A stretch of 64,000 nt of DNA. Origin: Ignavibacteriales bacterium (lineage in GTDB: Bacteria > Bacteroidota > Ignavibacteria > Ignavibacteriales > Ignavibacteriaceae). Positions 17,694 to 45,013 of this stretch are shown piece after piece; the stretch's first letter is position 1, and every line of letters starts with the position of its first letter. The notes beneath the pieces were generated by a model. The model was not told the origin of the DNA. It ran no database searches and saw nothing but the letters and a program-made list of their open reading frames with translations. The stretch is from NCBI GenBank assembly GCA_003538625.1, contig DPRR01000014.1:24945-88944 (forward strand). The letters run 5' to 3'. The position numbers were made by a program, and so were the translations under genes.

Positions 17694-20600
17694 TTACTTC
17701 ACCTTTATCACAACGAACGTAACATCATCATCTGGCTCCTGGCTATTTGTCCAGCTTCTGGCTTCTGCTCTTAAATGTGTGATAATTTCTTCTGGTTCTT
17801 TCTTTGCTGATTCTTCAAAACTGTTCCTTGCTCTTTTGTATCCGTATAATTCTCTGTTTGCATTTTTCAATTCCGCAAAGCCATCGCTCATAAGTAATAA
17901 TGTATCACCTCTATCTACTTTAAATTCCTTTACATCATAAACCACTTCCTTCATTGCACCTAATGGCATATTATTAATAACAACTTCTTCAATGGTTTGA
18001 GAATTGTTTCTGTAAATAAAAAGCGGTGGCATACCGGCATTTGTTGTTATAATTTTATTATTGCTTATCTGAACACATGTAAGCGCCATCATCAGTCGTC
18101 CAAGCTGCATATCTTTTATTGCTGCACTTGCATTTTCGAAGAATGGTTTAAGTGCCTTGTTTGTTCTATCTGACATGAAAAGAGATTTCATAATTGAGAC
18201 CATCATCCCGGACATCATTCCATGTCCGGTTGCATCACCAAGGACAACGGTTAATGTTCCATCCATATGAACATGAAAATCATAATAATCACCGCCAACT
18301 TCTGTCGCAGTTTTCATAAATACGGCAATATCAAGATGTGGAAGACTTGGCAGTGACTTGGGAAGCATTGAAAGTTGAAGCTGTCTGGCTTCTTCAAGTT
18401 CTTTTGTTTTTCTATCATTTTCTAACTGCAGGAATTTTTTATTTTCATTTTCTTTTCTTCTCTCTAGCTCGTACTTTCTTATTCCAACTAAACCAAGAAC
18501 AACAGAAATGAGATAAAAGGAATATGCCCACCATGTTCGCCAGATCGGGGGATTGACTTTGAATGAATATGCAGCTTCATTTGTTTTAACGCCGTTAGAT
18601 GTTATGCCGCGAACTTTAAATGTGTATTTACCAAAAGAAAGATTTTGGTATTCTGCAAAGGACAGCGTACTTGCTTTAGACCAACCCTTATCAAAGCCTT
18701 CAAGAAAATGTTCATAAGTTGTTTGTTTTGGATCTTTGAAATTCAATGCAGCATAACTGAAAATAAAAGAATTTTGAGAGTATGGCAATTCATTTGGAAA
18801 ATTATAATAATGGGATTGCCCGCTAATAGATACAGATGAAATTAATAATGGATAACTTTTTTCTTCACTCTTATTAATGTAAAGACCAACTCCGTTATAA
18901 AACTCAATCATATTTCCCAATCCATCCATTGCAGATATATAGGGACCGCCGCTTGCGACACTTTCGTCATGATAAAAAGTTTGAAATTTATTTCCATTTA
19001 TTTTTAATGCACCGGATGGAGATGAGAAATAAACATTACTTCTGATATCATCGATCACAGGATTTGAAAGATTAGTGGATAGAAGTCCATTCTTTTTTGT
19101 GTAAAAATTTAAATTAGTACCGTCAAAAATTACAAGTCCTCTGCCTCTAAGCCTTATATATAAATTATCTCCTGCCTGAATCTCTGTCTGTGTTCCGGCA
19201 ACACTTGCACCCTTTAAAATTCGGAAATCTGCATTAGCATTTACGCTATCACTAAGATTTATAAATTTGTTTCCGTTAAAAACATAAAAACCTCCCACTG
19301 TTAAAAAGTACATTCCATTTTTTAAGTTACCTACAAAATGCAATTGCTCTGTCGGAACGTTCCAGCTTTCCGGAGGTTTTGACCATGATTTCCCATCGTA
19401 CATCATTATTTTAGATTGTACTGAAGTTATATCTTTTATATTATCTGAGAATAGGCCAAAAAGCCAAAGCCTTCCATCATTATCTTCCCGAAGATCAAAC
19501 AGCTGATATTTTTTGCTGTTATCATCATCATTAAAAGGTGAGTTAATTTTTACAAACTTTTCCCCCTCAAATCTCCCCAGGTAATAATCAGCTTTAATAA
19601 GATCAGTTTCAGCCGGTCTTACATAATTTTGCCATGCATAAATATCACCATTCTTTGTTTCCATAATATCTGAAGTATTATAAGATTTACCATCCTGGTT
19701 TGGAACAGAATTAATTTTAAATATTTGTTCGTCCTCGCTGTTTTTAATTTCGCGAACGATTGTCAAACCTTTTGAGGTGGTAATCCAAATTCTTTTTTTA
19801 CTGTCCTGAAATATTTGGAAAGTAATATTGCTTGCAAGTCCATCTTTTTCTGTAATTGTTCGTAATTTTTTCCCGTCCCAAATGTTTATTCCCACGCTTT
19901 CAGTTTTAGCATAAGCCGGTAAATTGCTGTACGAATATGATAGCCAAACTAAACCATTATAATCAGTATAAGGGGTCACAATACCTGATTGTGTAACTAA
20001 TAGACCTTCCTTAGAAGTGAGCATTTGAGAATAGTTTGGATAATAAATTCCAATGCCTTTTGAAGTTTTCATTGCAACACCGTCGCTTAATGCGATTCCT
20101 GGTGCTGATTCAAATGAATCAAATTTTTTCCATTTGTTATCTGTAAATGAAAAAAGTTGGTTAGGATATTTTGAACTTTGATTTTGGGAAGTAACTTGAA
20201 ATACAAGCCGTTCCGGAAAGTAATTACTGGATTTCAGAAAAAGCACACTCTGGTATTTAAAGTCATTGATTACTCTATCCGTCTTCAGATCTCCGATAGA
20301 ATTAATTTCCTTTAAAATATTAGAGACCTTCCATTTTCCATTTTCAATTTCAAAAACACTTTTATTATTTCCATTAAAAATTTCACCATCTCTAATTAAA
20401 GTTGTCATGAACAACTTATCCATTTTTGTACTATAGTATACTTGAATTGGAAATTGATTCCTTTTAAGCAGATTCTTGAATTCTGTGAATTGATAAAATT
20501 TATTACCATCATACATCAAAACTCCGGAATATTTTTCAGATCCCTCTGAACCACTTATAACACCGGAACAAGCCAGCCATGTATTCCCGTCTTTATCGAT

Positions 20601-21344
20601 TGTTGTTACATTTTCCGTAGGGTATATATTTGCATTCTGCAAATTTATGCCAACTGATTCATCAATTCTTTTGAACACTCCATTTTTAAATAAAGCAACA
20701 TTCGAACCTTCGCGCGTTTGAGTATTATGACCGGCAGAATTAAATATAAGATCACCATACGGTGTTTCAATAAAGTCAGTTGCATTATCCAGTGGAAAAT
20801 TTTTAGAGTCATAGACAGTAAATTTATTATCTTCGAATTTTGTAAGACCACCATTATTATTTTTGTCTACGAATGGTGTTGAAGAACCAATCCATATTCG
20901 CCCCTTACCATCAGCTTTAACAAATGTTATTAACTGTCCTGATAATCCATTTATCTTATAACCTTCTTTTTCCGTATATACTTTAAATTCAGTTCCATCG
21001 AATGTTATAAATTTAGCAGGTGAAGCAAAGTACATTATATTTTTTGTCGAATCATAATACATATTTTGCATTGTGGGTAATCCAATATCAGTGCCCACTT
21101 CTTCAAATTCATATCCATTAAATCTGTAAGTTCCTTCAACGCTGGAAATCCAAATGAAACCATCTTTAGTTTGAATTCCATTTGATAGATTTGTGGTAGG
21201 CAATCCTTCTTTGTTGGTGTATTCAACAATATCCGCATTGGCTTCAGTTTTTAGTTTCTGCTGTGATATTATTGAAGATGAAAAAACAAATATCAAAAGG
21301 GCTATTAGATTCTTAAAAAATGTTACTTTCATAAAACTCACCAT
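17694..21344 (-). CDS. Periplasmic beta-propeller/Y_Y_Y sensor fused to TM, coiled coil and PP2C/SpoIIE phosphatase (divergent propeller)
   Basis: 1216 aa with a signal peptide and degenerate propeller repeats. Y_Y_Y-type FLEGFDKGW...YTFKVRG, juxtamembrane PPIWRTWWAY plus TM, ENDRKTKELEEARQLQLSMLPK, and a SpoIIE domain with GDATGHGMMSG. Confidence 0.85.
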   Translation of the reverse strand: MVSFMKVTFFKNLIALLIFVFSSSIISQQKLKTEANADIVEYTNKEGLPTTNLSNGIQTKDGFIWISSVEGTYRFNGYEFEEVGTDIGLPTMQNMYYDSTKNIMYFASPAKFITFDGTEFKVYTEKEGYKINGLSGQLITFVKADGKGRIWIGSSTPFVDKNNNGGLTKFEDNKFTVYDSKNFPLDNATDFIETPYGDLIFNSAGHNTQTREGSNVALFKNGVFKRIDESVGINLQNANIYPTENVTTIDKDGNTWLACSGVISGSEGSEKYSGVLMYDGNKFYQFTEFKNLLKRNQFPIQVYYSTKMDKLFMTTLIRDGEIFNGNNKSVFEIENGKWKVSNILKEINSIGDLKTDRVINDFKYQSVLFLKSSNYFPERLVFQVTSQNQSSKYPNQLFSFTDNKWKKFDSFESAPGIALSDGVAMKTSKGIGIYYPNYSQMLTSKEGLLVTQSGIVTPYTDYNGLVWLSYSYSNLPAYAKTESVGINIWDGKKLRTITEKDGLASNITFQIFQDSKKRIWITTSKGLTIVREIKNSEDEQIFKINSVPNQDGKSYNTSDIMETKNGDIYAWQNYVRPAETDLIKADYYLGRFEGEKFVKINSPFNDDDNSKKYQLFDLREDNDGRLWLFGLFSDNIKDITSVQSKIMMYDGKSWSKPPESWNVPTEQLHFVGNLKNGMYFLTVGGFYVFNGNKFINLSDSVNANADFRILKGASVAGTQTEIQAGDNLYIRLRGRGLVIFDGTNLNFYTKKNGLLSTNLSNPVIDDIRSNVYFSSPSGALKINGNKFQTFYHDESVASGGPYISAMDGLGNMIEFYNGVGLYINKSEEKSYPLLISSVSISGQSHYYNFPNELPYSQNSFIFSYAALNFKDPKQTTYEHFLEGFDKGWSKASTLSFAEYQNLSFGKYTFKVRGITSNGVKTNEAAYSFKVNPPIWRTWWAYSFYLISVVLGLVGIRKYELERRKENENKKFLQLENDRKTKELEEARQLQLSMLPKSLPSLPHLDIAVFMKTATEVGGDYYDFHVHMDGTLTVVLGDATGHGMMSGMMVSIMKSLFMSDRTNKALKPFFENASAAIKDMQLGRLMMALTCVQISNNKIITTNAGMPPLFIYRNNSQTIEEVVINNMPLGAMKEVVYDVKEFKVDRGDTLLLMSDGFAELKNANRELYGYKRARNSFEESAKKEPEEIITHLRAEARSWTNSQEPDDDVTFVVIKVK

Positions 21345-21357
21345 ATATAAGATTTTA

Positions 21358-21480
21358 AATTGCCCCGACCTTTAGGTCGGGGTTGGATATAAAAATGTTA
21401 TTGGGCTTTAGCCCAAATTTTCGCTAAAGCCTGCATCCTTTAGAATACAATTATTCCACGACCTGAGGGTCGTGGCAATT
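21358..21480. repeat. Compound palindromic element: four stem-loops bounded by 13-bp terminal inverted repeats
   Basis: AATTGCCCCGACC (21358..21370) against the reverse complement of GGTCGTGGCAATT (21468..21480) gives 12/13 identity. Internal hairpins are CCCCGACC-TTTA-GGTCGGGG, TTGGGC-TTTA-GCCCAA, CTAAAG-8 nt-CTTTAG and CCACGACC-TGAG-GGTCGTGG. Confidence 0.5.
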
Positions 21481-21505
21481 CAACACAATATTTGCATCAG
21501 GTGAC

Positions 21506-24500
21506 TCACTTAACTTTTATAACTACAAACGTTACATCATCATCAGGTTCATTACCGTTTGTCCACCTTGAACCGATCTCTTTCAGATAAGTTATAATTC
21601 GTTCCGGTTCTTTTTCTGCAACTTCTTCAAATGAATTCTTTGCACGTTTATATCCGAACAATTCTTTATGCTGATTTTGTAATTCAGGAAATCCATCGCT
21701 CATTAATAAAATTGTATCTCCTGTAAACAATTCCATTTCTTTTAACTCGTAAGGAAAGTTATCCATTGTTCCCAAGGGCATACCTTCCATTAAATGTTCT
21801 TCAATTATTTTATGCTTATTTCTGAATAGAAAAACAGGCGGCATACCTGCAGCAGACATAATTAATCTGTTATTTTGAATCTTCAGCATGGTCATTGACA
21901 TAGCAAGTGATTGAAACTGCATCTGCTTGATACATCTTGTCATTTCACGGAATGTAAAAAGTATATCGGGATTAGCAGCATAACTATTAAATAATGATTT
22001 AGCAGAAGTAACCATCGTTCCCGCTCTCATTCCATGACCGGTCGCATCCCCGATTACAACAGTTAATGTTCCATCCATTCCAACATTAAAATCATAATAA
22101 TCTCCACCAACTTCCGTAGCGGTTTTCATAAAAACAGCAATATCAATATGTGGTAATTGCGGCAGCAATTTTGGAAGCATAGAAAGCTGCAACTGACGTG
22201 CTTCCTCCAATTCCTTTGACTTGCGTTCATTTTCGGTTTCCGCGAGTTGAGCACGCAGATTAGCTTCTTTAATTGCCGCAGCATTACGTTCTTTGTTTAC
22301 AATTCTTCTTCTTTGGACTCTGTCTATTCCGAAAACAATACCTATAAAAAAGAAAAAGTAACCTATGTAGGCAACAGTGGTTCTCCACCAGGGAGGATTG
22401 ATAATAATTCGAATTGCCTTTCCTACATCATTCCAGATTCCATCTCCGTTGGAACCCTTAAATCTAAATGTATAATCACCTGGGTTTAGATTTGTGTAAG
22501 AAGCAAAATTTCTATCTGCAGCTATCCAGTGATCATTAAATCCTTCAAGCATATATATGATTTTATTTTTTTCCGGTCTTGAAAAATGAATGGAAGCAAA
22601 TTCAAAGGAAATATTATTCTGAGTATAAGAAAGAACTAACTCTTCAGTTTTCATTATACCTTTTTCCAATTTGATATCAGATGAATCTGATTTAAGTGAT
22701 ATTTCGGAAACCTTTATATCGTTAATAACTATATCAGGTTTTACTTCATTTATCTTTCCGGGATAGAAATGAGTTATACCATCAATTCCTCCTAAAAATA
22801 TCTCGCCATCTTTACTGATCCAGTTTGCTTTGCTTGTTGTAAAACCTTGTAGCCCGTCACGCGTATCAAAATTGACAAAGTTCCATTTGTCCTTCGTGGT
22901 ATTTTTATTCAGTTTGGATAATCCGGCAGATGTATTTATCCAAAGATTTCCTTCAAGATCTTCTATGATGGAATTTATCTGATTGGATGGCAGTCCATCT
23001 TTTTGATCATACTTATCAATTTTTTCTGTTTCAGGATCAAATCTTAATAAACTATTTGCGGTTGCTATCCAAACTATTCCTCTACTCTCCTCAAAAATGC
23101 AATTAATATAATTATTGGGAGAAAAAATATTTTTCGAATCAAAATTGTATTGCTTAAAATTTTGTTCGGCAAGATCATACTTAAAAAATCCGCTGATAGT
23201 AGAACCTAACCATACGACATTATTGAACCTCTTACTAAATTCAAAACAAGTTCCAACTTCCATTGGCATAAATTTATCAGAACTAATTTCTTTTTCATTC
23301 ATTTGATTAATGGCGTTGTAATCAGATTCATTCAAACTTATAACCTGAATTCCATACCAATTAGAATCCGGAGGTGCAATTGCATTCCAGGTTCCATAAG
23401 AATGACCAACGTCTGTAGCAAATGTAATTTTATAATCACCCTTCTTAAGGTCCAAACATCCAAGCGCAATACGGTTTTTAAAAGCTCCACCGTCATTAAA
23501 GGTTTTAAATAAGTTATTCATTGACCAGACTGTTTTTCCATTTCCGGTCAAAAGGGATCCTGCATCAGTAACACCCAAACCAACATTCATTTCACCTTCA
23601 CCAACACAAATAACCAAAACTTTTTGACCCTGATTTAATGAGAATGTTTTTTCTAAATTAGATGCTTCACCAACTTTTAAAATTGAGGCTATGCTTTTAC
23701 CGGATTCTGATACTTCATGTATTTTTTGTTTAAGATTCTCACTCATTGTCTTATTCATAATCGTAGGTAAGAGTGTATATTTATTTTTAGCAGGATTATA
23801 TCTCTCAAAACCCTGTCTTGATGCCATCCAGATATTACCGATCAAATCTATTTTTATAGAGTTTATATAATAAACTGAAGTTTTATTTTCGTTAGGTGAT
23901 TTAAATGTACTTAACAAATTATTTTTATCAATTTTGTGCAAACCTAGATTATTATATGCGAACCATTTATTCCCTTCATTATCTATAGCAAGACCTTGAA
24001 TATTTATCTTCTCATCTGAATCGTTAATTTTGCCGGGATTAAAATTCAATTTAGCAGATTTTTGATTTTCGAGATTGTAAGTGAATAGTCCCTTCTCAGA
24101 TGTTCCGATCGTTATCTCCTTACTTTGACTTATCCCGGCAATTACAGTAGAAAAATTTGCATTAGAATTTACGATATCATTGGTGATGAACTTATGGAAG
24201 TTAAATGGCTCTCTGAGGGGATCAAATTTTGTAACACCTTTCCCCCAAATCCCAATCCAGATTACTCCATATCTGTCTTTATAAATATTCGAAATAATAT
24301 TGCGGCCGAAGTTGTTTAATTCATAAATATTGTAATCAAATTTCTGAATGTTTTTTGTCTTCGGTTCAATTCTATATAGTCCTTGTGAATAAACCCCCGC
24401 CCATAAGTATCCTTCATCATCCTGAGTTATTCCTGTAACGTTATCGTAGCTGGTGGGGTTTTTTATTAAGCTAAATAAATCGTAACTGTCGATAGTGTAA

Positions 24501-25276
24501 AAAGACGGCGAATATCTTATTAATTGGTTCCTGCCACCGAACCAGATATTGCCGGATGCGTCTTCATATATAACCTGGAGTTCTTTCGGATTAAAATTTG
24601 TTTTGAGGTAATATGGCTGAAATACATTCTGTTTTTCATTATATATTTTAATACCGTTTCCATAATCAGCGACTAATATACTACCGTTTTTTAATTCTGT
24701 TATACTGTAGATATTACCCCATTGAACATTATTATTAGAAACTTCAAGAGGCACCTGTTTAAATTTGTTTTTTGATCTATTAAATTTTTGTATTCCATGA
24801 TTTGTGGATCCGAACCATAAATTTCCTTTAGAATCATAAAGAGCCGAATAAAAGTACGAGATGTTAGTTACACCGGCTGTTTCTATGCGGTAGCTTTGAA
24901 AGGTTTCATTTATTGGATTGTATCTTGCAATAGAATTCCCGGAAACACCTACCCAGATATATCCATCTGCATCCTCTGCAATTGCAGAACATTCATTAGT
25001 TGGAATAGTAGTAGAATCATTAGGGTCGTTTTTAAATACTTTTATACTATTTCCGTCATATCTGTTTAGTCCATCTGATGTTGATATCCAGAGGAATCCG
25101 TTGCTATCCTGAAAAATATAATTAACTGTAGAATTCGAGAGCCCTTCAGGCACCGAGATATTTTCAAAAAGGTAATTTCGTTGTTGTGCGTAACTTGAAG
25201 AAGCTAAGATGAAACTTAATATCACAAATAATAACTGCGATAATTTTCTTGTTCTAAACATTGGATTCTTATTCAT
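21506..25276 (-). CDS. Periplasmic two-propeller/Y_Y_Y sensor fused to TM, coiled coil and PP2C/SpoIIE phosphatase, with an extra inserted domain
   Basis: 1256 aa with a signal peptide and repeats of the type D..G.LWI(G/S)T..GL.RYD. YMLEGFNDHW...YTFRFKGSNGDGIWN, PPWWRTTVAY plus TM, ENERKSKELEEARQLQLSMLPK, and a SpoIIE domain with GDATGHGMRAG. Confidence 0.85.
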   Translation of the reverse strand: MNKNPMFRTRKLSQLLFVILSFILASSSYAQQRNYLFENISVPEGLSNSTVNYIFQDSNGFLWISTSDGLNRYDGNSIKVFKNDPNDSTTIPTNECSAIAEDADGYIWVGVSGNSIARYNPINETFQSYRIETAGVTNISYFYSALYDSKGNLWFGSTNHGIQKFNRSKNKFKQVPLEVSNNNVQWGNIYSITELKNGSILVADYGNGIKIYNEKQNVFQPYYLKTNFNPKELQVIYEDASGNIWFGGRNQLIRYSPSFYTIDSYDLFSLIKNPTSYDNVTGITQDDEGYLWAGVYSQGLYRIEPKTKNIQKFDYNIYELNNFGRNIISNIYKDRYGVIWIGIWGKGVTKFDPLREPFNFHKFITNDIVNSNANFSTVIAGISQSKEITIGTSEKGLFTYNLENQKSAKLNFNPGKINDSDEKINIQGLAIDNEGNKWFAYNNLGLHKIDKNNLLSTFKSPNENKTSVYYINSIKIDLIGNIWMASRQGFERYNPAKNKYTLLPTIMNKTMSENLKQKIHEVSESGKSIASILKVGEASNLEKTFSLNQGQKVLVICVGEGEMNVGLGVTDAGSLLTGNGKTVWSMNNLFKTFNDGGAFKNRIALGCLDLKKGDYKITFATDVGHSYGTWNAIAPPDSNWYGIQVISLNESDYNAINQMNEKEISSDKFMPMEVGTCFEFSKRFNNVVWLGSTISGFFKYDLAEQNFKQYNFDSKNIFSPNNYINCIFEESRGIVWIATANSLLRFDPETEKIDKYDQKDGLPSNQINSIIEDLEGNLWINTSAGLSKLNKNTTKDKWNFVNFDTRDGLQGFTTSKANWISKDGEIFLGGIDGITHFYPGKINEVKPDIVINDIKVSEISLKSDSSDIKLEKGIMKTEELVLSYTQNNISFEFASIHFSRPEKNKIIYMLEGFNDHWIAADRNFASYTNLNPGDYTFRFKGSNGDGIWNDVGKAIRIIINPPWWRTTVAYIGYFFFFIGIVFGIDRVQRRRIVNKERNAAAIKEANLRAQLAETENERKSKELEEARQLQLSMLPKLLPQLPHIDIAVFMKTATEVGGDYYDFNVGMDGTLTVVIGDATGHGMRAGTMVTSAKSLFNSYAANPDILFTFREMTRCIKQMQFQSLAMSMTMLKIQNNRLIMSAAGMPPVFLFRNKHKIIEEHLMEGMPLGTMDNFPYELKEMELFTGDTILLMSDGFPELQNQHKELFGYKRAKNSFEEVAEKEPERIITYLKEIGSRWTNGNEPDDDVTFVVIKVK

Positions 25277-30637: not shown

Positions 30638-30706
30638 TTTAATTTTATCTTTATAATGAATGGATAATTACTTTGCTGCTCAAACAAAAGTAATACGAAA
30701 ATAATT

Positions 30707-30738
30707 TGTGCTGCCACAGAATAGTCCGCGGCAGCACA
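30707..30738 (-). terminator. Stem-loop between the STAS gene and the GAF-phosphatase gene (possible attenuator or processing site)
   Basis: TGTGCTGCC-14 nt-GGCAGCACA is a 9-bp GC-rich stem. Only a weak T-rich tail follows it on the minus strand. Confidence 0.35.
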
Positions 30739-30757
30739 ATGAAACTTAAAAAGAAAA

Positions 30758-34600: not shown

Positions 34601-34807
34601 ATAGCCATCGTATCTGTTTAATCCATCCTGCGTTCCAAACCACATAAATCCATCTTTATCCTGGAAGATGCAGGTGACTGCACTTTGAGAAAGACCATTT
34701 TCTACAGTAAGATGATTAAAAGAAACATGATTTTGAGAAAACATTTCTGAAAAGAGTAATAGAATAGAAGTAAGACAAAACAGAATCTCCCTGAACATAA
34801 AAAGCAT
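31637..34807 (-). CDS. Periplasmic two-propeller/Y_Y_Y sensor fused to TM, coiled coil and PP2C/SpoIIE phosphatase
   Basis: 1056 aa with a signal peptide and many GLSxNxVxxIxxDxxGxxWIGTxxGGLNxFD repeats. YKLEGFNANW...YTLRVIGSNNDGVWN, PPWWKTNLAY plus TM, ENERKTKELEEARQLQLSMLPK, GDATGHGLQAG, and DDDISFVVIRVK. Confidence 0.85.
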   Translation of the reverse strand: MLFMFREILFCLTSILLLFSEMFSQNHVSFNHLTVENGLSQSAVTCIFQDKDGFMWFGTQDGLNRYDGYNFKVFKNISNDSTSLSDNFIFSIYEDKAGGLYIETQSGKLNKYNPLDESFKILEPGKLDLSSFKMSTVKAIYFDGKDITWRGGLGKEVGLTMENKKTGEKKVYMHNPNDNSSLSDNKVYSVLRDKNGSLWVATFNGLDKLDEKTGKFQHFKNIAGNPNSLSDNWVWPLFEDLKGNLWVGTVKGGLNKFDPNSNTFISFKNDPSDPKSLDDNFIFSIYEDRSGLIWIGTNTGGVNYFDPSSQVFEHYFNIPERKNSLKDNNVYSMLVDRKGNYWIGTRKGGLDKFDYKTKNFYNYSHNPSNPNSLIDNSIQALFEDRSGTLWIGSFSSGLNSFNPETGIFKSYVHNPSDQNSISDNRIYAIIEDADGNIWIGTYEGGLNMLERNSGRINTYKYDGKDSTSLSSNRTWSLALDNSGNIWVGTFGGGVNIFDKSKKTFRHFINNPKDPNSIGDDNIIRVFKDSKGNMWLGTTKGLCRFYSDENKFKTYSEKDGLCNNFIYGILEDNNGNLWLSTNNGLSKFNPASETFTNYYSSDGLQNNEFNQNAFAKDSKTGNLLFGGVNGFNVFNPDRITGNTYVPPIVITNYIRYNTDDQEGKPIIEKGISEMKEISITYKDNIVTLEFSALSYYNNFNNQYRYKLEGFNANWIQLGNNNRVTFTNLSPGDYTLRVIGSNNDGVWNEEGTSLLVHVSPPWWKTNLAYAIYFISFFGLLYFIRQVEINRREQKAQIRESALRIKATEAEKRALEIENERKTKELEEARQLQLSMLPKKLPVLPNLEIAAFMRTATEVGGDYYDFRIIENNGLYVAFGDATGHGLQAGTMVTLMKGFFTSDSSKLGMSEFMNHCSRMIKEIELGRILMSFSYLKIEGSKLKITSAGMPPIFFYNSSSNDVEELVIQGMPLGAMRNFPYKVIEKEINSGDIILLLTDGLPEQMNLDEEMFDYSRVKSNFQSVASNHPEEIINHLVVAGDDWMNGRIQDDDISFVVIRVK

Positions 34808-34878: not shown

Positions 34879-34917
34879 AAAAAAAAAGCCCTTGATTTTA
34901 GTTTTAAATCAAGGGCT
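34879..34917 (-). terminator. Rho-independent terminator of the T9SS-cargo gene
   Basis: Minus-strand AGCCCTTGATTT-7 nt-AAATCAAGGGCT is a 12-bp perfect stem followed by a run of 9 T. Confidence 0.8.
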
Positions 34918-37900: not shown

Positions 37901-39596
37901 GATTAATAGAGTTATCATTTGCATAGAACTGAATTTTATAATTTTTTCCTGGTACGCTTTGCAAAGTACCTTGAATAGCAGTGCCGCCTTTAATATCAGG
38001 CAATGCTGTTTCATCCTGCCAGGTATAAAGAGTATTTAGTGTAGGATAAGTTTGTGAGTCGTTTGTTAATGAGTTTAATTTAATTCCTAATACCGAGTTG
38101 CTGTAAATTGAATTATTTAAAATTGAATTACCATTCCCGGACTGCACAAAAATACCAGAAGCCCCATTATTAAATACTTTTTGATTTCTGATGTTATTGT
38201 TATTTCCATTAATTACAATTCCATTGTTAGGATTATTTGCAATTATATTTTCTGTCGTCAATGAAAAATTAGAAGAATTAAATAATATACCAGCTGTTGC
38301 ATTTCCGGAAATAGTATTATTTGATAAAACACTATTGCCAGCAAACGCTGAAATCTCAACACCTGCGCTAGTTGAATTAATTAAAGAATTATTTGAAATA
38401 TTATTGTTTGGTGAATTTATTTTTATTCCTGTTATTTGGTTGTTAACTATGTTGTTTCCTCCCAAATTAGTTAGAGTTAAACCATAACCCGAAGTACTGT
38501 TTATAGCAAGTCCTCGCATTGTACTCCCACTTCCACTTATATCAATTCCAGCTAATCCGCCAATAACCTGGACTAAAGGCGACCCAATGTAACCTTTCTG
38601 GGATGTAGCGTCTAAAAGCACTGATTCTGTAATGGATGGTAATGAAGTTAATGGTTGAATTACCGGCGAAGTATCGGTTATATAGAAATATATTGTTTGT
38701 TGCCCTGCAAGTGCATTCGCTTCCTGAACTGCAGATCTTAAAGTAACTTTTCCATTTAAAGATACAGCAGAGCCATCACCAACTATGGAATCAGCATCAT
38801 CAGCCGCCGATGTTACTACAAAGAATGGTATATTTTTGCTAGGTACTATCTGATTAATATCAACTATTCTCAAATGATTTTTCTTGGTTGATAAATCATT
38901 AAGCAGATTGCCGGCACTTATTGCTGTAAAAGACCACTGACCGACTGAGTACTGTGAAAGTGATGATGGGAATGGTTCTGCAGGATTTCCATTTCCTCCG
39001 GAACTATTAATATTGTTATCGCCTAAAGCTATGTTAAAAATTCTTACTTCATCTATCAAACCTTTAAAAGCACCTTCTGATGATTTTCCAATAAATAATC
39101 CCTGCCCGCCAGTATATCCTGGTGTTAATGTATACGGAATACTTTGAATAAGATTTCCACCACTATAAATTTTTAGAGTTGTACCATCATAAGATCCTGT
39201 AAGGCTTATCCAGGTAAAAGCGGGAAATTCCTGTGTGCTCAAAATAGGACTATTACCGACTGAAAAATATCCTTTATTGTCTTTTACATAAAGTGAAAAT
39301 GTTGTTCCGCCCTGAACTGCACGATAAACAATCGGCATTTTTACACCTGGATTATCTCCGATCAGATAAACCCACGCCTGAACTGTAATTTTATTATTTG
39401 CTGCATTACTGTTAAAAAATTTAAAACCGTCTTGATTCGCATCGCTATTGGCAGGTGCATTATCATAAACATAAAGCTGACTTGTTGTACCATTAAAAAC
39501 AAAAGCATTATTATTCCCACCCTGTGCAAATGAAATACTGCTTAATGCAGTTAGAGAAAGTAAAATAAAAGTAAAAATATTTTTTGAAATTTTCAT
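34926..39596 (-). CDS. Giant T9SS-secreted multidomain protein: LamG, parallel beta-helix, metzincin-like protease, vWA-like, T9SS C-terminal sorting domain
   Basis: 1556 aa with a signal peptide. LamG-type ...GLIDEVRIFNIAL, then TLRSAVQEANA and NNxISGN beta-helix repeats. HEIGHYSGLAD lies at aa 779-789 (nt 37230..37262), followed by a vWA-like segment (VLVFDGTTN...LIILFSAGE). The C-terminus YPNPFNPSTRIDFQMP...GIYFYRLSSGSFVSTKKLMLLK is a classic Por/T9SS tail. Confidence 0.8.
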   Translation of the reverse strand: MKISKNIFTFILLSLTALSSISFAQGGNNNAFVFNGTTSQLYVYDNAPANSDANQDGFKFFNSNAANNKITVQAWVYLIGDNPGVKMPIVYRAVQGGTTFSLYVKDNKGYFSVGNSPILSTQEFPAFTWISLTGSYDGTTLKIYSGGNLIQSIPYTLTPGYTGGQGLFIGKSSEGAFKGLIDEVRIFNIALGDNNINSSGGNGNPAEPFPSSLSQYSVGQWSFTAISAGNLLNDLSTKKNHLRIVDINQIVPSKNIPFFVVTSAADDADSIVGDGSAVSLNGKVTLRSAVQEANALAGQQTIYFYITDTSPVIQPLTSLPSITESVLLDATSQKGYIGSPLVQVIGGLAGIDISGSGSTMRGLAINSTSGYGLTLTNLGGNNIVNNQITGIKINSPNNNISNNSLINSTSAGVEISAFAGNSVLSNNTISGNATAGILFNSSNFSLTTENIIANNPNNGIVINGNNNNIRNQKVFNNGASGIFVQSGNGNSILNNSIYSNSVLGIKLNSLTNDSQTYPTLNTLYTWQDETALPDIKGGTAIQGTLQSVPGKNYKIQFYANDNSINREGKRYLGEVDVTTDIAGGSDFLANLKDVVLVDGEVVSATATVLNNSGNPLSTSEFSASIQRATDEGDHYIVNTTLAGIPLHWKDGKGTYQIAQSVVTKGYDDEIQNGFNTWSDLQQLEYTRKFFANSEKWGGNADGLNNVVWMPTSSAWVDSTEAPTNVIAVTRVRYNALNGEMIDIDIAFNGDPISLTTGNHFQWATDGSSDKLDVQNTATHEIGHYSGLADLYNPGDFNYTLRMKNNNQLATMFGRIDNGETYKNTLHPAYNSSNQLQIDKYDVGGINYIYSHLGDVYYDIVLVFDGTTNFTSSDVLNGFTPSQNAAMELVTKLRIGDKIGWVNGSNQVVPIGDNFNQIISSLQNLQPNTNGTLAERILAAEQLLSGQSNNKKLIILFSAGEVSPITSITNLTLDPNIKIYTMGFEGLQDGQDLMSWLANKTKGEYYEMASSTEIPTAVNIIWLRLLGLQISYLSEEINSALFAGGLSWQGGLSWQGGTLDMGLSWQGSEYSLVLLPPGVNITDPPNLPAGAITQDNYTLSNYEVELLNGTSLYGEPYKFFRVNNPGIGAWKYAIIENIPPLDPEPLRVYMANRSDLVLEFKTDQERYYLQYDQNGNPIPVTVHLEAKLFQGGETSGLSDHTKTVGQAVDDALIGVQMTSPDGQTVVGRLTPVGNGLYTIALQTTLLGNYDISVIASDNVQNGNTNNSQYLITTEHSFYISPYINPTELTGKALIQKAINELSAIMSQYCPSNNNCSLDNNTKRNITGAISLLTTALGYFQNNDGNRLKVSKGLSFYSNLTTAVNNIYAYESNLNFGNRIDAALEYLIEGGYKIAVLARDDAQMPGACVVSNCDQLLQSANSELGKAIDESKQNNYVYIFNHLTNAWKFAQNMMGANLKKEAGDEEVTNIPTQYGLDQNYPNPFNPSTRIDFQMPEKNHVTLQIYDILGNLVTTLVDEEMNAGYHSAYWNAGGLSSGIYFYRLSSGSFVSTKKLMLLK

Positions 39597-39660: not shown

Positions 39661-40158
39661 TTACCGTAGCTCAACATAGCTTTTAATTTCTTTTTTAAGA
39701 GTTGATATTTTTTTGTTAAATGATGTTACTTTTTCACCTGTGGCTTTATCTTCATACAATGTAAGTTTACCCTCCTCACCATTTAATACCCGATAGCTTA
39801 AATCCTTATTATCCTTTTTTACAAATAATAAAACCTCTTCATCATTTGTAAATTTTGGCATGTGAGAATAAAGTTCTCCGACATCTCCCACTTCGCCGCC
39901 TAAAGTTTTAACAGATAATGTGTTTTCAGAATAATCTCCCTTCAGATATTCATCTGCCCGCAATGTAACTTCAGTATAAATACGGGATCTGTCTGCATTC
40001 CACGAAGAAGTTTGGTTAATAACTTTTCCAGTTAAGATTACATCAGCGCCATCCGTAAGGGATTTAAGTTCTGACTGAATAGATTGTGACAGCAGTAAAC
40101 CTTGCGTTCCGAAAAAACAGAACGTAAGTAATAGCATTATTCGTGAACGAGTATTCAT
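39661..40158 (-). CDS. Small secreted protein of unknown function
   Basis: 165 aa with a signal peptide (LLLTFCFFGTQGLLLSQS) and a GGAGAG Shine-Dalgarno sequence upstream. No family was recognised. Confidence 0.5.
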   Translation of the reverse strand: MNTRSRIMLLLTFCFFGTQGLLLSQSIQSELKSLTDGADVILTGKVINQTSSWNADRSRIYTEVTLRADEYLKGDYSENTLSVKTLGGEVGDVGELYSHMPKFTNDEEVLLFVKKDNKDLSYRVLNGEEGKLTLYEDKATGEKVTSFNKKISTLKKEIKSYVELR

Positions 40159-40864
40159 AATACATCTCTCCAGGGAATTTATTATTAGTTATTTTCTTAA
40201 TCTTTGATTGTCAAATCATGCTCAATAGATTTGACAATGCCCTCTAAACAGTGAATTAAATATATAAAAAATTATTGACAAATGTTAATGTTAAGCAACT
40301 ATTACGGCTTATCAATTAAGAACTACTTTTTCTATAAATCTAGTTTAAGCGTTACAAAATTAATAGTTAGATAAATATAGTGGTTATGATATTTCTCGCA
40401 ATCATGTGGATTTTTAAAGCAGAAGATTAACTTTTGAATAATTGTTGTTTTGGAGCAATTTGAGTTCTACGTTAGCTCTTAATTTTTCTCATCCAAATCA
40501 CAATTATGAACATTTAATTGATATTAACAAAAATCGATATTAAGCAACACAGTAGTTTTAATTCATTATAATATTCTGACTTACTTGTTATTGAAATAGA
40601 AATTTTTATTTAATAGTAACAATTAAATTACTGTTTACCTTTCGTATTAAGTTAGTTTTAAAATTTTTTTGATAATAGAATTTTTAATGTATTTTAGATA
40701 CAGAATCTATTTGAACAAAAGTCCTTCTTCACTAATTAATAATTATTGTATTTTATCATTAGTTGATAGTGACTTTTGTTCAGATTACGGCAGCCATCAA
40801 AACTTATTAAAAGATTTAAAGAGTACTTATCGATGTTATTCAGAAAAATAATCCTTTCATTGAT

Positions 40865-43800
40865 ATGACGAGAATTGAATTTCACAGGTCGTTATCATTA
40901 TTCACCTCACTAATTTTTATTATTACTTTTTCCGCCTTACCACAAAATCAAAATTTAAAATTTAAATATCTTTCAAGCGATGATGGATTATCTCAAAATT
41001 TTGTTTCTTGTATAATACAAGATCAAAAAGGATTTATGTGGTTTGGAACTAAAGATGGATTAAACAGATATGATGGTCATACTTTTATAGTCTATCAGAA
41101 TGATCCTTTTAACACTAAGACCATTTCAGATAATTTTATAACTTCATTATTTGAAGACAGCCGCGGTTACATTTGGGTTGGGACATTAAATGGCGGTTTA
41201 AATATTTTTGATAGAGAAACAGAAACCTTTCATCGTATTAATTATACTTCAAATGTACCTCACACAAGTAATATTGATGAAGTAAAATCCATTGTGGAAG
41301 ATTCAAAAGGAAATATCTGGTTTGGCACACGGGGCGAAGGGATTTTCAAAATAAGCTTTAAAAGAAAAAATTCTTTTGACATAACCTATGATCAATTTGT
41401 ATCTAATCCCAACGATCGTGGTAGTTTAAGCAGTAATATTGTCTCTACTTTATTTTATGATTCAAAAGGCACATTATGGGTCAGTACTTTAACAGGACTT
41501 GATAGATTTGATTTTGAGACAGAAAAATTTACTCATTATAATATCCAGACTCGAAATCCTAAAGCGCCTCCTAATTTTTTTGATGAAACTGTTTATTCTA
41601 TTTGTGAATCACGCAAGGGAGACTTATGGCTGGGTTCATTAAGTGGTCTGGTAAAATTTAATAGACAAACCGGAAGTTATAAAATTTTTCCTAACCGATA
41701 TGAAATTTTTAGATATGGTTGGGGAAGCGTAGTACAAATTATAGAAGATAATTTTGGGAAATTATGGCTTGCAACTCCGGCTGAACTAATGAGTTTTGAT
41801 CCTGAAAAAATGTCTTATAATTATTTTAGAAATGATCCGTCAAATCTAAATTCAGTTAGTTACAACAGTATATCAAGTTTGTTTATTGATAGAACAGGAA
41901 TACTTTGGGTTGGTACTGCAGGAATGGGAATTAATTTGTACGATCCAAAGGTTAATCGTTTTTCTACTTTTGCTTATCAAAATGACCCTTCTTCCCGGGT
42001 TACAGGATTCAGCGTAAGATCTGTTTTGCAGGAAAATGATGAGATCATCTGGATTAGTACGGATGTACTGTATAAATGGAATAGAAAGAACGGAGAAATA
42101 AAAGACTTTGAAACTGATTCAAACCGGCCCGACGATTTTGGAAATACCGGTCCATGGTCAATGATTAAATCGTATGATGGGATGATATGGACAGCTACAA
42201 CGGAGGGTGTCTTTCGTTACGATCCTTCAAAGGGTAATTCAAGACAATATAAATTCAATCCATCTGATAGTCTTGGGTTACCTCAAAAAGAAGCTTTCAC
42301 TGTTTTTGAAGATCATCAAAAAAATATTTGGGTAGCAACCGAAAATTACTTTTGCAAAATGATTGATATTGATAAAGGCATTTTCAAATCTTTTCGTTAT
42401 CAAACTCCCCTTCCCTATAATCAACGGGTGCGTCCCGTAATTTATCAGGATAATAAAGAACTGTTCTGGATCGGAACAAGAAATGGTCTTTTAGTTTTCG
42501 ATCAAAAAAAGCAGACATTTTTTGCATACAAAAACGATCCTGCTAAACCATATAGTTTGAATAATGATAATATAAATTCGATTTGTCCCGATCCCGTAAA
42601 TCCAGATAACATTCTCTGGCTTGGTACCTCTGGCGGCGGATTAAATAAATTTAATATTGATGAAGGTACTTTTGCTCATATTACTGAAAGCGAAGGACTG
42701 CCTAATAATGTAGTTTATGGAATCTTACCCGATCACAATGGAAATTTATGGCTGAGCACAAATAAAGGGTTATCTAAATTTAATCCGCAGAAAAATATTT
42801 TTAGGAATTATGATGTTCTTGATGGATTACAAAGCAACGAATTTAACACCGGAGCATATTATCTTAGCAAAAATGGAGAGATGTTTTTTGGTGGCATTAA
42901 AGGATTAAATTATTTCTATCCGGATAAAGTAAAAGACAATCAGTTTATTCCGACAATCGTTTTGACTAGATTAAAACTTGGGGACAAAATTATTTCAGTT
43001 AAAAATGATAATTCAATCTTACAAAAAACTATTTCAGAAACTAATAAACTTGTTCTTACTTACGATGAAGATGTTATTACTTTTGAATTTGCTGCACTTG
43101 ATTTTTCAGCGCCCAGAAAAAATCGCTTTGCATACAAGCTGGAAAATTTTAATAAAGATTGGATTTATTCAGGATCGGTAAGATCAGCAACCTTTACACA
43201 TTTGCCGCCGGGTGAATATATTTTTCGGGTTAAAGGAACCAACAATGATGGTGTTTGGAATGAAAATGGTGTTGCACTTGAATTGATAATTACACCACCA
43301 TGGTGGAGCACCTTTTGGGCATATATAATTTATTTGATACTGATACTTTTGGCTCTGTATTATATCCGACGCTATGAATTAAACAGATTAAGACTGAAGA
43401 ATCAGTTAAAACTTGAAAAAGTGGAAACAGACACTTTGCGTAACCTGGATCATCTCAAATCCAGTTTCTTTGCCAATATATCCCACGAATTTAGAACACC
43501 GCTTACATTAATCCTTGGTCAAATTGAAAGTGTAATGTCATCAAACATTGCAACAAAGGAAAAAGGTAAACTTCAGGTTGCAAACCGAAATGCAAGAAGA
43601 TTATTAACATTGATCAATCAAATATTGGATCTATCAAAACTTGAAGCCGGCAGCATGGAACTTAAAGCAGAACAGCATAACATTGTTTCATTTCTCAAAA
43701 GTATTTTCTATTCATTTGAATCGCTTGCAGAATCAAAAAAAATAACTTTAAAGTTTGAATCTGAAATGTCAAATATTCCATTGAAATTTGATCCCGATAA

Positions 43801-45013
43801 AATGGAAAAAATTATCTGCAACCTTATTTCAAATGCTTTAAAGTTTACTTCTGAAAACGGTGAGATTAAAGTTTCTATAAATGTAATTTTAAACAGAGTT
43901 GAAATCATAATTAAAGATACAGGAATTGGAATTCCTAAGGACAGATTACCTCACATATTCGATCGATTTTATCAGGTGGATAGTTCAATCACACGTGAAT
44001 ATGAAGGGACCGGTATTGGATTAGCTTTGACGAAAGAATTGGTTGAACTTCACAAAGGCAGCATTTACGCAAAAAGTAAATTAGGAGAAGGTACCGAATT
44101 TATAATTGATTTTCCGCTAGGAATTTTAAATCCGGATGATAATTTATTAGTTGAAATTAATGATGCAAATAATTCATATACAGATAATAACCAATTGATC
44201 GAATCGAATATTGATTCTAAAATGCCGCTAAGTGATGAGCAGCCGTTGTTAAAAATTGAGCAAAAGGAAATTATTTTAATTGTTGAAGACAATATTGATG
44301 TTCTAAACTACATTAAGGAACAACTTGAAAACGATTACCGAATCATTCAAGCGGCTAATGGTGAAGAAGGATTCACCAGAGCTCAAAACGAAATTCCGGA
44401 TTTGATAATAACGGATGTAATGATGCCTAAGATGGATGGATATCAGCTAAGCAATAAAATCCGTAATGATGAAAAAACAAGTCATATCCCCATAATTATG
44501 TTAACTGCTAAAGCAGGTCTTGATGATAAAATTGAGGGACTTGAAACAGGTATTGATGATTATCTGACTAAACCTTTCAGTTCAAAAGAACTTATGGTAA
44601 GAGTAAGAAATTTAATTTATCAGCGGAAGCAGTTAAGAAAAAAATTCAGTAAGTCCACAATTATAAAGCCTGCAGAAGTTACGGAAGTGTCTGTTGATCG
44701 GGCATTCTTAGAAAAAGTAATTAGTACAATTGAAAAACATTTTTCGGATGAGCAGTTTACTGTAGAAAAACTTTCAGATGAAATGAACATGAGTGTGTCT
44801 CAGTTAAACAGAAAACTGAATGCACTTATTGATCAGCCGCCGGGACAAATGATTAGAACATACCGTTTGCAAAGAGCAGCAGATCTTTTAAAACAAAATG
44901 CCGGAACTGTAGCTGAAATATGTTACAAAGTAGGATTTAATGATCAGGCATATTTTTCTCGTGCGTTTAAAAAAGAGTTCGGATGCAGTCCATCAGAATA
45001 TAAACTAAAATAA
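40865..45013 (+). CDS. Hybrid two-component system sensor (HTCS): propellers, Y_Y_Y, TM, HisKA, HATPase_c, REC, AraC-type HTH
   Basis: 1382 aa with regulator-propeller repeats. YKLENFNKDW...YIFRVKGTNNDGVWN, PPWWSTFWAY plus TM, H-box SHEFRTPLT, and G-boxes DTGIGIP and GTGIGLALTKELV. Receiver LIVEDN...DLIITDVMMPKMDG, and C-terminal AraC HTH (YKVGFNDQAYFSRAFKKEFGCSPSEY). Confidence 0.9.
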   Translation: MTRIEFHRSLSLFTSLIFIITFSALPQNQNLKFKYLSSDDGLSQNFVSCIIQDQKGFMWFGTKDGLNRYDGHTFIVYQNDPFNTKTISDNFITSLFEDSRGYIWVGTLNGGLNIFDRETETFHRINYTSNVPHTSNIDEVKSIVEDSKGNIWFGTRGEGIFKISFKRKNSFDITYDQFVSNPNDRGSLSSNIVSTLFYDSKGTLWVSTLTGLDRFDFETEKFTHYNIQTRNPKAPPNFFDETVYSICESRKGDLWLGSLSGLVKFNRQTGSYKIFPNRYEIFRYGWGSVVQIIEDNFGKLWLATPAELMSFDPEKMSYNYFRNDPSNLNSVSYNSISSLFIDRTGILWVGTAGMGINLYDPKVNRFSTFAYQNDPSSRVTGFSVRSVLQENDEIIWISTDVLYKWNRKNGEIKDFETDSNRPDDFGNTGPWSMIKSYDGMIWTATTEGVFRYDPSKGNSRQYKFNPSDSLGLPQKEAFTVFEDHQKNIWVATENYFCKMIDIDKGIFKSFRYQTPLPYNQRVRPVIYQDNKELFWIGTRNGLLVFDQKKQTFFAYKNDPAKPYSLNNDNINSICPDPVNPDNILWLGTSGGGLNKFNIDEGTFAHITESEGLPNNVVYGILPDHNGNLWLSTNKGLSKFNPQKNIFRNYDVLDGLQSNEFNTGAYYLSKNGEMFFGGIKGLNYFYPDKVKDNQFIPTIVLTRLKLGDKIISVKNDNSILQKTISETNKLVLTYDEDVITFEFAALDFSAPRKNRFAYKLENFNKDWIYSGSVRSATFTHLPPGEYIFRVKGTNNDGVWNENGVALELIITPPWWSTFWAYIIYLILILLALYYIRRYELNRLRLKNQLKLEKVETDTLRNLDHLKSSFFANISHEFRTPLTLILGQIESVMSSNIATKEKGKLQVANRNARRLLTLINQILDLSKLEAGSMELKAEQHNIVSFLKSIFYSFESLAESKKITLKFESEMSNIPLKFDPDKMEKIICNLISNALKFTSENGEIKVSINVILNRVEIIIKDTGIGIPKDRLPHIFDRFYQVDSSITREYEGTGIGLALTKELVELHKGSIYAKSKLGEGTEFIIDFPLGILNPDDNLLVEINDANNSYTDNNQLIESNIDSKMPLSDEQPLLKIEQKEIILIVEDNIDVLNYIKEQLENDYRIIQAANGEEGFTRAQNEIPDLIITDVMMPKMDGYQLSNKIRNDEKTSHIPIIMLTAKAGLDDKIEGLETGIDDYLTKPFSSKELMVRVRNLIYQRKQLRKKFSKSTIIKPAEVTEVSVDRAFLEKVISTIEKHFSDEQFTVEKLSDEMNMSVSQLNRKLNALIDQPPGQMIRTYRLQRAADLLKQNAGTVAEICYKVGFNDQAYFSRAFKKEFGCSPSEYKLK

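Follow-up and report, generated by a model that had tools for sequence, protein, structure and literature searches.

Propeller sensors joined to PPM phosphatases in a partner-switching-type gene cluster of an Ignavibacteriales bacterium

A stretch of 64,000 nucleotides from an Ignavibacteriales bacterium (contig DPRR01000014.1 of assembly GCA_003538625.1, positions 24,945 to 88,944 of the forward strand; hereafter the window) encodes four proteins in which a predicted periplasmic sensor of the hybrid two-component system (HTCS) type is joined to a serine phosphatase of the PPM family, together with one HTCS in which the same type of sensor is joined to a histidine kinase. The question is how one kind of sensor comes to stand before two unrelated outputs, and which pathway the phosphatase version would serve. 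The four sensor-phosphatases (SP1 to SP4) are probably inner-membrane receptor phosphatases that feed periplasmic signals into a partner-switching pathway with several inputs. They belong to a minus-strand gene cluster of about 26 kb with seven PPM phosphatases, one RsbW-like kinase and two STAS genes, and the HTCS gene is transcribed divergently from this cluster. The architecture described in the initial annotation is confirmed in these open reading frames (ORFs); its four phosphatases lie on the minus strand, so the positions that it quoted are their stop-codon ends. It missed the RsbW-like kinase, the two STAS genes and three further PPM genes of the same cluster. The genes that carry the argument are the following.

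31637-34807, minus: SP4, sensor-phosphatase, 1056 residues (Pfam, PDB match, AlphaFold2 model); N-terminal hydrophobic segment, double propeller and Y_Y_Y at about residues 26-757, PPWWKT at 758-763, transmembrane (TM) helix, linker, PPM at 837-1056
31107-31523, minus: RsbW/SpoIIAB-like serine kinase (anti-sigma-type switch kinase), 138 residues (Pfam HATPase_c_2)
30758-31093, minus: STAS1, anti-sigma-antagonist type, 111 residues, presumed phosphatase substrate (Pfam STAS)
25465-28821, minus: SP3, sensor-phosphatase, 1118 residues, PPWWRT at residues 830-835 (Pfam)
21506-25276, minus: SP2, sensor-phosphatase, 1256 residues, PPWWRT at residues 961-966 (Pfam)
17694-21344, minus: SP1, sensor-phosphatase, 1216 residues, PPIWRT at residues 932-937 (Pfam)
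18357-18551, minus: SP1 junction (PPIWRT, TM helix and linker to LPK), the swap breakpoint region
22169-22396, 26128-26334 and 32300-32536, minus: equivalent junction segments of SP2, SP3 and SP4, respectively
40865-45013, plus: HTCS, sensor cassette, PPWWST (residue 811) and TM helix, then HisKA, HATPase, REC and AraC helix-turn-helix (HTH)

The sensor cassette and the phosphatase module

Pfam finds SpoIIE (E 1e-30 to 3e-35), Y_Y_Y (5e-12 to 1.5e-19) and Reg_prop in all four SP ORFs, and Reg_prop, Y_Y_Y, HisKA, HATPase_c, Response_reg and HTH_18 in the HTCS ORF. The whole-protein cut-offs for Reg_prop and Y_Y_Y are passed by all five proteins, as expected from the shared sensor architecture first proposed for them, and HisKA, HATPase, REC and AraC HTH domains occur only in the HTCS and in none of the four phosphatases. 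The juxtamembrane motif reads PPIWRT in SP1, PPWWRT in SP2 and SP3, PPWWKT in SP4 and PPWWST in the HTCS, each variant as originally quoted and directly before the TM helix. In all five proteins, the only internal hydrophobic segment begins right after PPxWxT and is followed by a stretch rich in Arg and Lys, and a second hydrophobic segment is located at the N-terminus. Because of the Arg/Lys cluster after the internal segment, the positive-inside rule predicts periplasmic propellers and a cytoplasmic output; this topology is called from hydropathy and the positive-inside rule only. The N-terminal hydrophobic segment, described earlier as a signal peptide, is present but may be an anchor instead of a cleaved peptide. 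The propellers described with it are weak by sequence in SP1, where the Reg_prop signal reaches 39 bits and no individual repeat is significant alone. Profile searches support the propeller/Y_Y_Y homology, and the predicted topology places the propellers in the periplasm and not in the cytoplasm.

Predicted structures, which cover SP4 and the SP1 sensor, agree with solved HTCS sensors. At the sequence level, SP4 matches BT4663 (4A2L, E=5e-120) and BT3049 (3V9F, 3e-109) over its whole periplasmic part. The AlphaFold2 model of SP4 (mean pLDDT 84.9) is all-beta from residue 30 to 757, followed by helices at 764-799 and 811-832 and by the alpha/beta PPM domain. Foldseek ranks BT4663 first (E~1e-63, target TM score 0.70-0.78, 29-30% identity over about 780 aligned columns), then BT3049, BT4673 and PorZ; for the PPM part it returns the RsbU domain of Rv1364c. 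In SP1 the propellers are degenerate, and by sequence only the Y_Y_Y-TM part scores by itself; however, the model of its sensor (pLDDT 85.2) also finds BT4663, BT3049, BT4673 and PorZ first (E~1e-27, 14-15% identity), and therefore SP1 keeps the fold despite its divergent sequence. The propeller regions of SP1-4 are 25-37% identical to each other. SP2 carries an insert of about 135-170 residues (about residues 505-684) without counterpart in the other four cassettes, for which neither a significant Pfam match nor a PDB sequence match was found. PorZ is a type IX secretion system (T9SS) component with the same double-propeller fold (5M11 is among the fold matches), and the SP4 sensor scores 137 bits against the NCBIfam PorZ model, below the cutoff of 260.

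The closest characterized sensors are therefore those of the Bacteroides thetaiotaomicron HTCS (BT4663, 4A2L/4A2M; BT3049, 3V9F; BT4673, 3OTT/3VA6), which possess the same two Reg_prop propellers, Y_Y_Y domain and TM helix, with a membrane-proximal Y_Y_Y domain feeding a presumably dimeric helix. Compared with these, the output of the SP proteins is a PPM domain instead of HisKA-HATPase-REC-AraC, no polysaccharide utilisation locus (PUL) adjoins the genes, and the host belongs to Ignavibacteriaceae.

The output domains score 90-148 bits against the SpoIIE Pfam cutoff of 25. The motifs GGDYY, GDxxG(H/K)G, (S/T)DG and DD(V/I)(T/S) are kept in all seven PPMs of the cluster, and their acidic motifs align with the matching conserved motifs of the B. 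subtilis SpoIIE structure sequences. With all metal-binding motifs intact, the seven domains look active. That they are instead RssB-like regulated adaptors, scaffolds or decoys is very improbable: a weak, below-cutoff NCBIfam similarity to RssB and the degenerate membrane PP2C paralogues of other partner switches, such as Chlamydia CT589, could be quoted for it, but the four conserved acidic motifs are intact in 7/7 proteins and nearly invariant across orthologs. Membership in the RssB family was rejected, its NCBIfam score being far below the curated cutoff, and so was membership in the SiaA family (26-31 bits against a cutoff of 700).

A conserved coiled coil after the TM helix had been taken as a mark of the sensor-phosphatases. 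The stretch itself exists: ENERKTKELEEARQLQLSMLPK is exact in SP4 (the 31637 protein) and carries one or two substitutions in SP1-3. However, it is the generic alpha0/linker helix of RsbU-type PPMs, (K/R)ELE(E/D)ARQLQL(S/A)MLP in six proteins, and it also occurs on the propeller-less phosphatases S323 and S1539, with a degenerate version, EQELIVAASIQQRILP, in S535. The same SpoIIE-family metal motifs and an alpha0/linker helix of the ELExAxxLQxxxLP type are found in B. subtilis RsbU, RsbP and SpoIIE. These systems resemble the present cluster further in that genes for a STAS substrate and an RsbW-type kinase lie beside the phosphatase genes and several phosphatases act on one switch. Nevertheless, the SP input is periplasmic and passes through a TM helix, whereas RsbU and RsbP respond to a cytoplasmic partner (RsbT, RsbQ); in addition, no sigma factor gene is linked here, and up to seven phosphatases stand in one cluster.

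Among SP1-4, S323 and S1539, the linker+PPM modules share 46-78% identity (S323 65% with SP1, SP4 about 50% with the others), compared with only 25-37% among the propellers; the PPM of S535 is 26-30% identical to the other six. One output module is thus found on at least three unrelated input types. In the PPM tree, the modules of SP1-3, S323 and S1539 form one clade with that of SP4. Across genomes the sensor-linked PPMs fall into two well-separated groups, and the fusion of sensor and PPM accordingly arose at least twice. The PPM of SP1 is sister to those of S323 and S1539 (100% bootstrap), whereas its sensor groups with that of SP2 (87%); since the two halves have different nearest relatives, this points to module shuffling at the linker within the cluster. 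In the same tree, a pair of adjoining sensor-phosphatases (L011 1-6957) has sister PPM modules (100% bootstrap), and a 1274-residue protein of a length near SP2's (L005 15939-19760) groups with the PPM of SP3, which suggests that output modules of tandem paralogues underwent concerted evolution or gene conversion.

The inputs of the cytoplasmic PPMs are of other kinds. S1539 contains six repeats, each ending in a near-identical helix (RF..VF..TYTRFLDLxKAEAQAREAQIExALERVR), and the helix of the last repeat continues straight into the alpha0 motif; similar proteins occur in 10/77 related loci. Pfam gave nothing significant for the N-terminus of S535 or for one S1539 repeat.

Output exchange and the linker helix

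Domain shuffling is known for bacterial sensors, and the initial annotation had read the cluster as an output-domain swap. Close homologs support this. A search with the SP1 sensor alone (935 residues; outputs classified by motifs) returned, among the matches listed, 95 PPM-coupled proteins and 19-20 classical kinases at 60-100% identity, mostly over the full query length, with a few shorter homologs without recorded output. The kinase-coupled proteins contain HisKA and HATPase, measure about 1222-1256 residues and are in several cases named 'signal transduction histidine kinase'. Across all 935 residues, SP1 is 60-78% identical to homologs on either output. In the alignment of SP1-type sensors, the kinase-coupled set forms one split (98/100 bootstrap), and the mean sensor identity is 64% between the PPM and kinase sets compared with 68-69% within them. 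The closest pair, P0318 (kinase) and P0310 (PPM), has a sensor identity of 78%; measured over windows of 40 residues, the identity stays at 0.60-0.88 to about residue 965 and then falls to 0.15-0.30. In the alignment, the breakpoint lies where the TM helix starts, immediately behind PPxWxTWWAY.

SP2-type sensors have a kinase-coupled counterpart as well. One member of a kinase array (L083) is 72-80% identical to the SP2 sensor, private insert included, and then continues into HisKA/HATPase; here the similarity spans the TM helix and IDRVQRRRI and stops about 15-20 residues further on. The two kinase outputs of this array share 69% identity, a level similar to that among the PPM outputs of the window. 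Two such arrays (L083 6382-22992 and L084 1-15382) consist of three to four tandem propeller/Y_Y_Y sensor kinases with interleaved TPR-kinases; FIST_C and DUF6090 genes precede the first, as in the window, and REC and REC-guanylate_cyc genes come after the second. Frameshifts, which probably reflect errors of assembly, interrupt several genes of L083. Among the matches listed, SP3-type sensors down to 49% identity, including that of Caldithrix abyssi DSM 13497, are PPM-coupled or shorter without recorded output, and the best 120 matches of SP4 (66-100% identical) have identical domains, all PPM-coupled. Since SP1- and SP2-type sensors occur on both outputs and SP3- and SP4-type sensors on PPM, the core receptor appears to be stably a phosphatase, while the accessory receptors have been re-plugged.

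On a wider scale, 158,979 cluster representatives match a profile of the window sensors at E<=1e-3, and 61,161 do so at E<=1e-30. The best 150 representatives carry HisKA (37), kinase plus REC (36), HisKA_3 (18), PPM (18, and 2 with extra domains), HisKA_2 (7), GGDEF (6), HTCS (6), class III cyclase (2), LytS-type (2), Ser/Thr kinase (2) and GAF (2) outputs; 5 are unclassified by the local profiles used for this assignment and 7 are shortened or without output. One example of most kinds was checked with Pfam. A neighbour-joining tree of these 150 sensors and the window proteins was rejected as a count or date of swaps: its deep nodes have 0-22% bootstrap, and its PPM leaves scatter almost at random (19 changes versus 22.5 with shuffled labels). 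Of the separate phylogenies suggested for the swap, that of the PPM domains is informative and that of the sensors is unresolved at depth, so the close homologs carry the case instead. Other proteins with this cassette show the same exchangeability. BguR, described recently (bioRxiv 10.64898/2026.01.10.698779), has the same sensor, motif and single TM helix with a DNA-binding GerE HTH output, and Reg_prop/Y_Y_Y-GGDEF proteins and classical sensor kinases likewise combine this sensor, motif and TM helix with an exchangeable cytoplasmic module. These outputs lead to His-Asp transfer, second messengers or direct DNA binding, whereas a PPM domain leads to serine phosphorylation and partner switching.

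The linker lengths follow a rule. The distance from PP to KELEE is 49, 60, 53 and 63 residues in the window's phosphatases, and 53 ORFs of the genome scan described below have only 42, 49, 63, 70 and 77 or 53, 60, 67 and 74. In 346 non-identical PPM-coupled proteins, the length from the motif to LP takes nine distinct values, all 57+7k or 68+7k; the chance of this is about 21 x (2/7)^9, roughly 3e-4, if the nine lengths are independent, which they are not fully. Kinase-coupled relatives have 22 lengths covering all seven classes, a more heterogeneous set and hence a weak control. Steps of 7 and 11 residues are coiled-coil periodicities. Because the lengths step by 7 and 11, the rule argues for one continuous helix that keeps a fixed phase between membrane and PPM domain, a helix that is inferred from the length statistics and not seen in the model. 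It is tentatively proposed, at slightly less than even confidence, that within one bacterial class the same sensors are plugged into PPM or histidine kinase outputs, that whole tandem arrays are wired either way, that the joint falls at the TM helix or in the first turns on the cytoplasmic side, and that the PPM linkers keep strictly to 7n or 7n+4.

The partner-switch genes and their distribution

The remaining elements of the cluster and of its surroundings are as follows; on the minus strand, the genes after STAS1 run S535, SP3, SP2, SP1, FIST, DUF6090, FIST, S323, S1539 and STAS2.

30706-30739, minus: terminator-like hairpin, 15-bp stem, just 3' of STAS1
34887-34917, minus: hairpin, 12-bp stem and T8, between the T9SS protein gene and SP4
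29030-30637, minus: S535, cytoplasmic PPM phosphatase with an N-terminal region of about 330 residues
16403-17542, minus: FIST protein, candidate accessory sensor
15555-16355, minus: DUF6090 membrane protein, candidate accessory sensor
14293-15456, minus: second FIST protein, candidate accessory sensor
13313-14284, minus: S323, short cytoplasmic PPM, N-terminal helical region followed by linker and PPM
8690-13309, minus: S1539, cytoplasmic PPM, 1539 residues, SnoaL-like N-terminus and six repeats of about 185 residues
8201-8515, minus: STAS2, second STAS protein, 104 residues, last gene of the cluster
34926-39596, minus: T9SS cargo, 1556 residues, with LamG, right-handed beta-helix, HEIGH zincin-like (HExxH) and Por_Secre_tail
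39661-40158, minus: 165-residue secreted protein, 5' of the T9SS cargo gene

The kinase directly downstream of SP4 matches Pfam HATPase_c_2 (2e-20) and RsbW 6M36 in the PDB (2e-8); its motifs read as N, G1 and G2 boxes align with 6M36, and its match to NCBIfam RsbW/SpoIIAB is below the cutoff. The VNSIG serine of STAS1 aligns with the DSSG serine of B. subtilis SpoIIAA (Ser58 as counted here), and the YVTSW of STAS2 contains a Ser that was picked out by eye, from the sequence alone. SP4, the kinase and STAS1 look like one apparent transcription unit, because the two hairpins bracket them. Promoter-like and terminator-like totals in the scans are no higher than in shuffled sequence, and the two long hairpins are used here on account of their stem length and intergenic position. 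The proposed coupling to partner switching is thus supported by context, with an RsbW-like kinase and a STAS protein with an aligned Ser directly after SP4, and by the recurrence of the order sensor-PPM, kinase, STAS in many genomes.

This recurrence was followed with the Y_Y_Y-to-PPM junction against one genome per GTDB species, which gave at least 600 stretches, at least 525 of them confirmed, in Ignavibacteria, Melioribacteraceae, Calditrichota, Rhodothermales, Chitinophagales and metagenome-assembled genomes (MAGs) labelled Chlorobiaceae. The best relatives of SP4 (at least 120 clusters of orthologs sharing 66% identity or more) come from Ignavibacteriaceae/Ignavibacteriales MAGs and, in one case, from Ignavibacterium album. 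Gene order was counted in 77 scanned loci: at least one ORF with sensor end and PPM is present in 68/77 and two or three in 21/77, tandem sensor-PPMs by gene-order pattern in 18/77, a kinase and STAS gene within 6 kb in 32/77, the order sensor-PPM, kinase, STAS in 17/77 and the order kinase, STAS, S535-like in 27/77. In three contigs compared closely (L001, which is I. album-like, L004 and L005), the core runs 165-residue protein, protein of about 1550 residues, SP4, kinase, STAS and S535-like phosphatase. After this core follow no extra sensor-phosphatases in L001, at least two in L004, and one together with a REC protein and a large multi-GAF protein in L005. The STAS2 counterpart lies directly 3' of the S535 ortholog in L001, and the sequence of L004 and L005 ends before its expected place. 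An HTCS ortholog is near the cluster in 2/3 contigs (L001, L005), in differing orientation.

Whether all sensor-phosphatases converge on this one switch is a separate matter. The initial annotation had four sensors feed one pathway, which is plausible, although four is probably too low a number: one output module is common to six phosphatases, and a single kinase is encoded in the window. In an unlikely alternative, each sensor-phosphatase would have its own substrate elsewhere (another STAS protein or a Hanks-type kinase target), and the adjoining kinase/STAS pair would serve only SP4 and/or S535. The hairpins do set the SP4-kinase-STAS1 unit apart, SP1-3 each have an upstream gap of 160-210 bp, the extra sensor-PPMs vary from 0 to 3 per genome around a constant core, and the PPM of SP4 is only about 50% identical to the others. 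On the other hand, the genes of the extra phosphatases stand between the core and STAS2, on the same strand and in the same cluster, no other kinase or substrate and no Hanks kinase is encoded in the window, and the linker+PPM modules of SP1-3 fall in one clade with that of SP4.

Several observations weigh against the receptor-phosphatase, partner-switching interpretation. SP1-3 lie outside the SP4-kinase-STAS unit, with gaps of 150-210 bp between the genes, and their co-regulation and shared substrate are therefore assumed. Two STAS proteins, either of which may be the substrate of a given phosphatase, stand against one kinase. A sigma factor or other obvious kinase target was not found in the 64-kb window or in 10-kb flanks of L001, L004 and L005; the target may be encoded elsewhere. 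The linker statistic comes from related sequences, mostly of one PPM clade, and the AlphaFold2 model of the SP4 monomer has a low-confidence break at residues 794-820, between the TM helix and alpha0. Finally, there is no ligand clue and no PUL nearby.

Other partner switches offer parallels. Pseudomonas aeruginosa SiaA, of the SiaABCD system, is a membrane PP2C phosphatase over a kinase/STAS-like switch with a non-sigma output; the sensor and linker here are different, and there is no diguanylate cyclase partner. Bacillus cereus RsbK-RsbY provides a histidine-kinase input to a partner switch, a parallel for REC-PPM fusions. Such fusions and small REC proteins adjoin sensor-phosphatases in L006, L007, L020 and L077, and through them the same partner switch could receive signals from histidine kinases. 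FIST genes adjoin PPM genes in six loci (L024, L025, L029, L034, L074 and L075). In the window, the second FIST gene stops 8 bp before S323, which stops 3 bp before S1539, and FIST proteins may be trans-acting sensors for S323 in the manner of RsbT for RsbU or RsbQ for RsbP. The nearest characterized analogue at the level of the system is RsbU-RsbW-RsbV1/RsbV2 of Chlamydia trachomatis (PMC4552016), an example of membrane-spanning PP2C phosphatases characterized in partner switches elsewhere. It shares with the cluster a membrane-traversing PP2C, one RsbW, two STAS antagonists, several PP2C paralogues and the lack of a dedicated sigma gene beside them. However, it has another extracytoplasmic domain and a HAMP linker, in contrast to the HTCS double propeller and direct coiled-coil linker here.

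The intergenic region between the HTCS and the cluster (40100-40900) has only AT-rich repeats at chance level and no convincing operator. A plus-strand run of small genes 3' of the HTCS (45276-50892) comprises several SnoaL/DUF4440-like genes, one MoaF-like and one RidA gene and then a major facilitator superfamily transporter, and it is no PUL; in L001 a comparable run, differently arranged, separates the HTCS ortholog from the cluster. On the minus strand, 52716-57256 encodes two ATPases of the T2SSE family and a platform protein of the T2SSF family, which are type II secretion or type IV pilus-like and without evident link to the sensor-phosphatases.

Signal transfer, ligand and significance

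In the proposed mechanism, ligand binding would move the membrane-proximal domains of a dimer, as in BT4663, where the dimer closes like scissor blades on ligand binding and its membrane-proximal ends move (Lowe et al. 2012, as cited in PMC8534201). This motion would alter the packing of the TM/linker helices, and the packing would in turn set PPM activity in one sense or the other, as in RsbU, in which the packing of the crossing coiled-coil linker turns the PPM domain on (PMC12143880). The active phosphatase would dephosphorylate STAS1, and perhaps STAS2 too; the unphosphorylated STAS protein would capture the RsbW-like kinase, and the target of the kinase would be freed. In addition, the cytoplasmic PPMs S535, S323 and S1539 and the FIST proteins may add intracellular inputs. 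Sensor and output are separable modules, SP1- and SP2-type sensors of sister lineages joining classical histidine kinases at or just after the TM helix. The authors of the RsbU work propose that such a linker makes sensors interchangeable among PPM, kinase and GGDEF outputs (PMC12143880).

Glycan sensing, initially suggested as a possibility, finds no support in the window, which has no SusC/SusD, CAZyme or PUL context. A possible but rather doubtful alternative is that the periplasmic domains report the state of the envelope or surface instead of glycan fragments, for example by responding to a ligand of the lipopolysaccharide type, or to the T9SS protein's presence or product. The missing SusC/D and CAZyme context would fit this, as would the T9SS cargo and 165-residue secreted protein directly 5' of SP4 and of its orthologs: the pair recurs in the three synteny contigs, and the large protein stands in this position in at least 10 scanned loci. 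Furthermore, PorZ, with the same double-propeller fold, has a role in delivery of anionic lipopolysaccharide (A-LPS) according to PMC8545088. Yet the characterized ligands known or found are all carbohydrates (heparin/heparan sulphate for BT4663, from the entry title, and laminarin for BguR), and GH16 or cellulase/carbohydrate-binding-module genes lie near some related loci. The cargo pair could be linked to the signal of SP4; a PDB sequence search with the 1556-residue T9SS protein gave marginal matches only. The transduction model is unaffected by the ligand question.

To our knowledge, partner-switching phosphatases are mostly known with cytoplasmic inputs, and the control of a PPM domain from the periplasm across the membrane has been little studied. 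Literature searches on Y_Y_Y with SpoIIE and on Ignavibacterium with partner switching found nothing, those on regulator propellers with PP2C or RsbU returned PP2C and RsbU papers, none mentioning regulator propellers, and no experimental paper on the propeller/Y_Y_Y-PPM architecture was found. The class is therefore experimentally uncharacterized in the literature found, as first supposed. However, it is abundant and already labelled by annotation pipelines: relatives of SP4 are recorded as 'two-component regulator propeller domain-containing protein', 'SpoIIE family protein phosphatase' or 'ligand-binding sensor domain-containing protein/serine phosphatase RsbU'.

The class is large: species-representative genomes of Ignavibacteria, Calditrichota and further lineages of the Fibrobacteres-Chlorobi-Bacteroidetes (FCB) group contain at least 525 loci. 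It also shows HTCS-type sensors in use outside PULs. Its main value is as a test system, in the natural histidine kinase/PPM chimeras, the linker rule and the cultured hosts Ignavibacterium album and Caldithrix abyssi. Histidine kinases with almost the same sensors serve as natural controls and make the class well suited to testing whether a single helix-packing signal is able to drive outputs of unrelated chemistry. If the interpretation is true, the transmembrane signal of this receptor class would be output-agnostic, namely a change in helix packing, and the natural chimeras would provide a ready test of the 'exchangeable toolkit' model for the control of PPM, histidine kinase and cyclase outputs.

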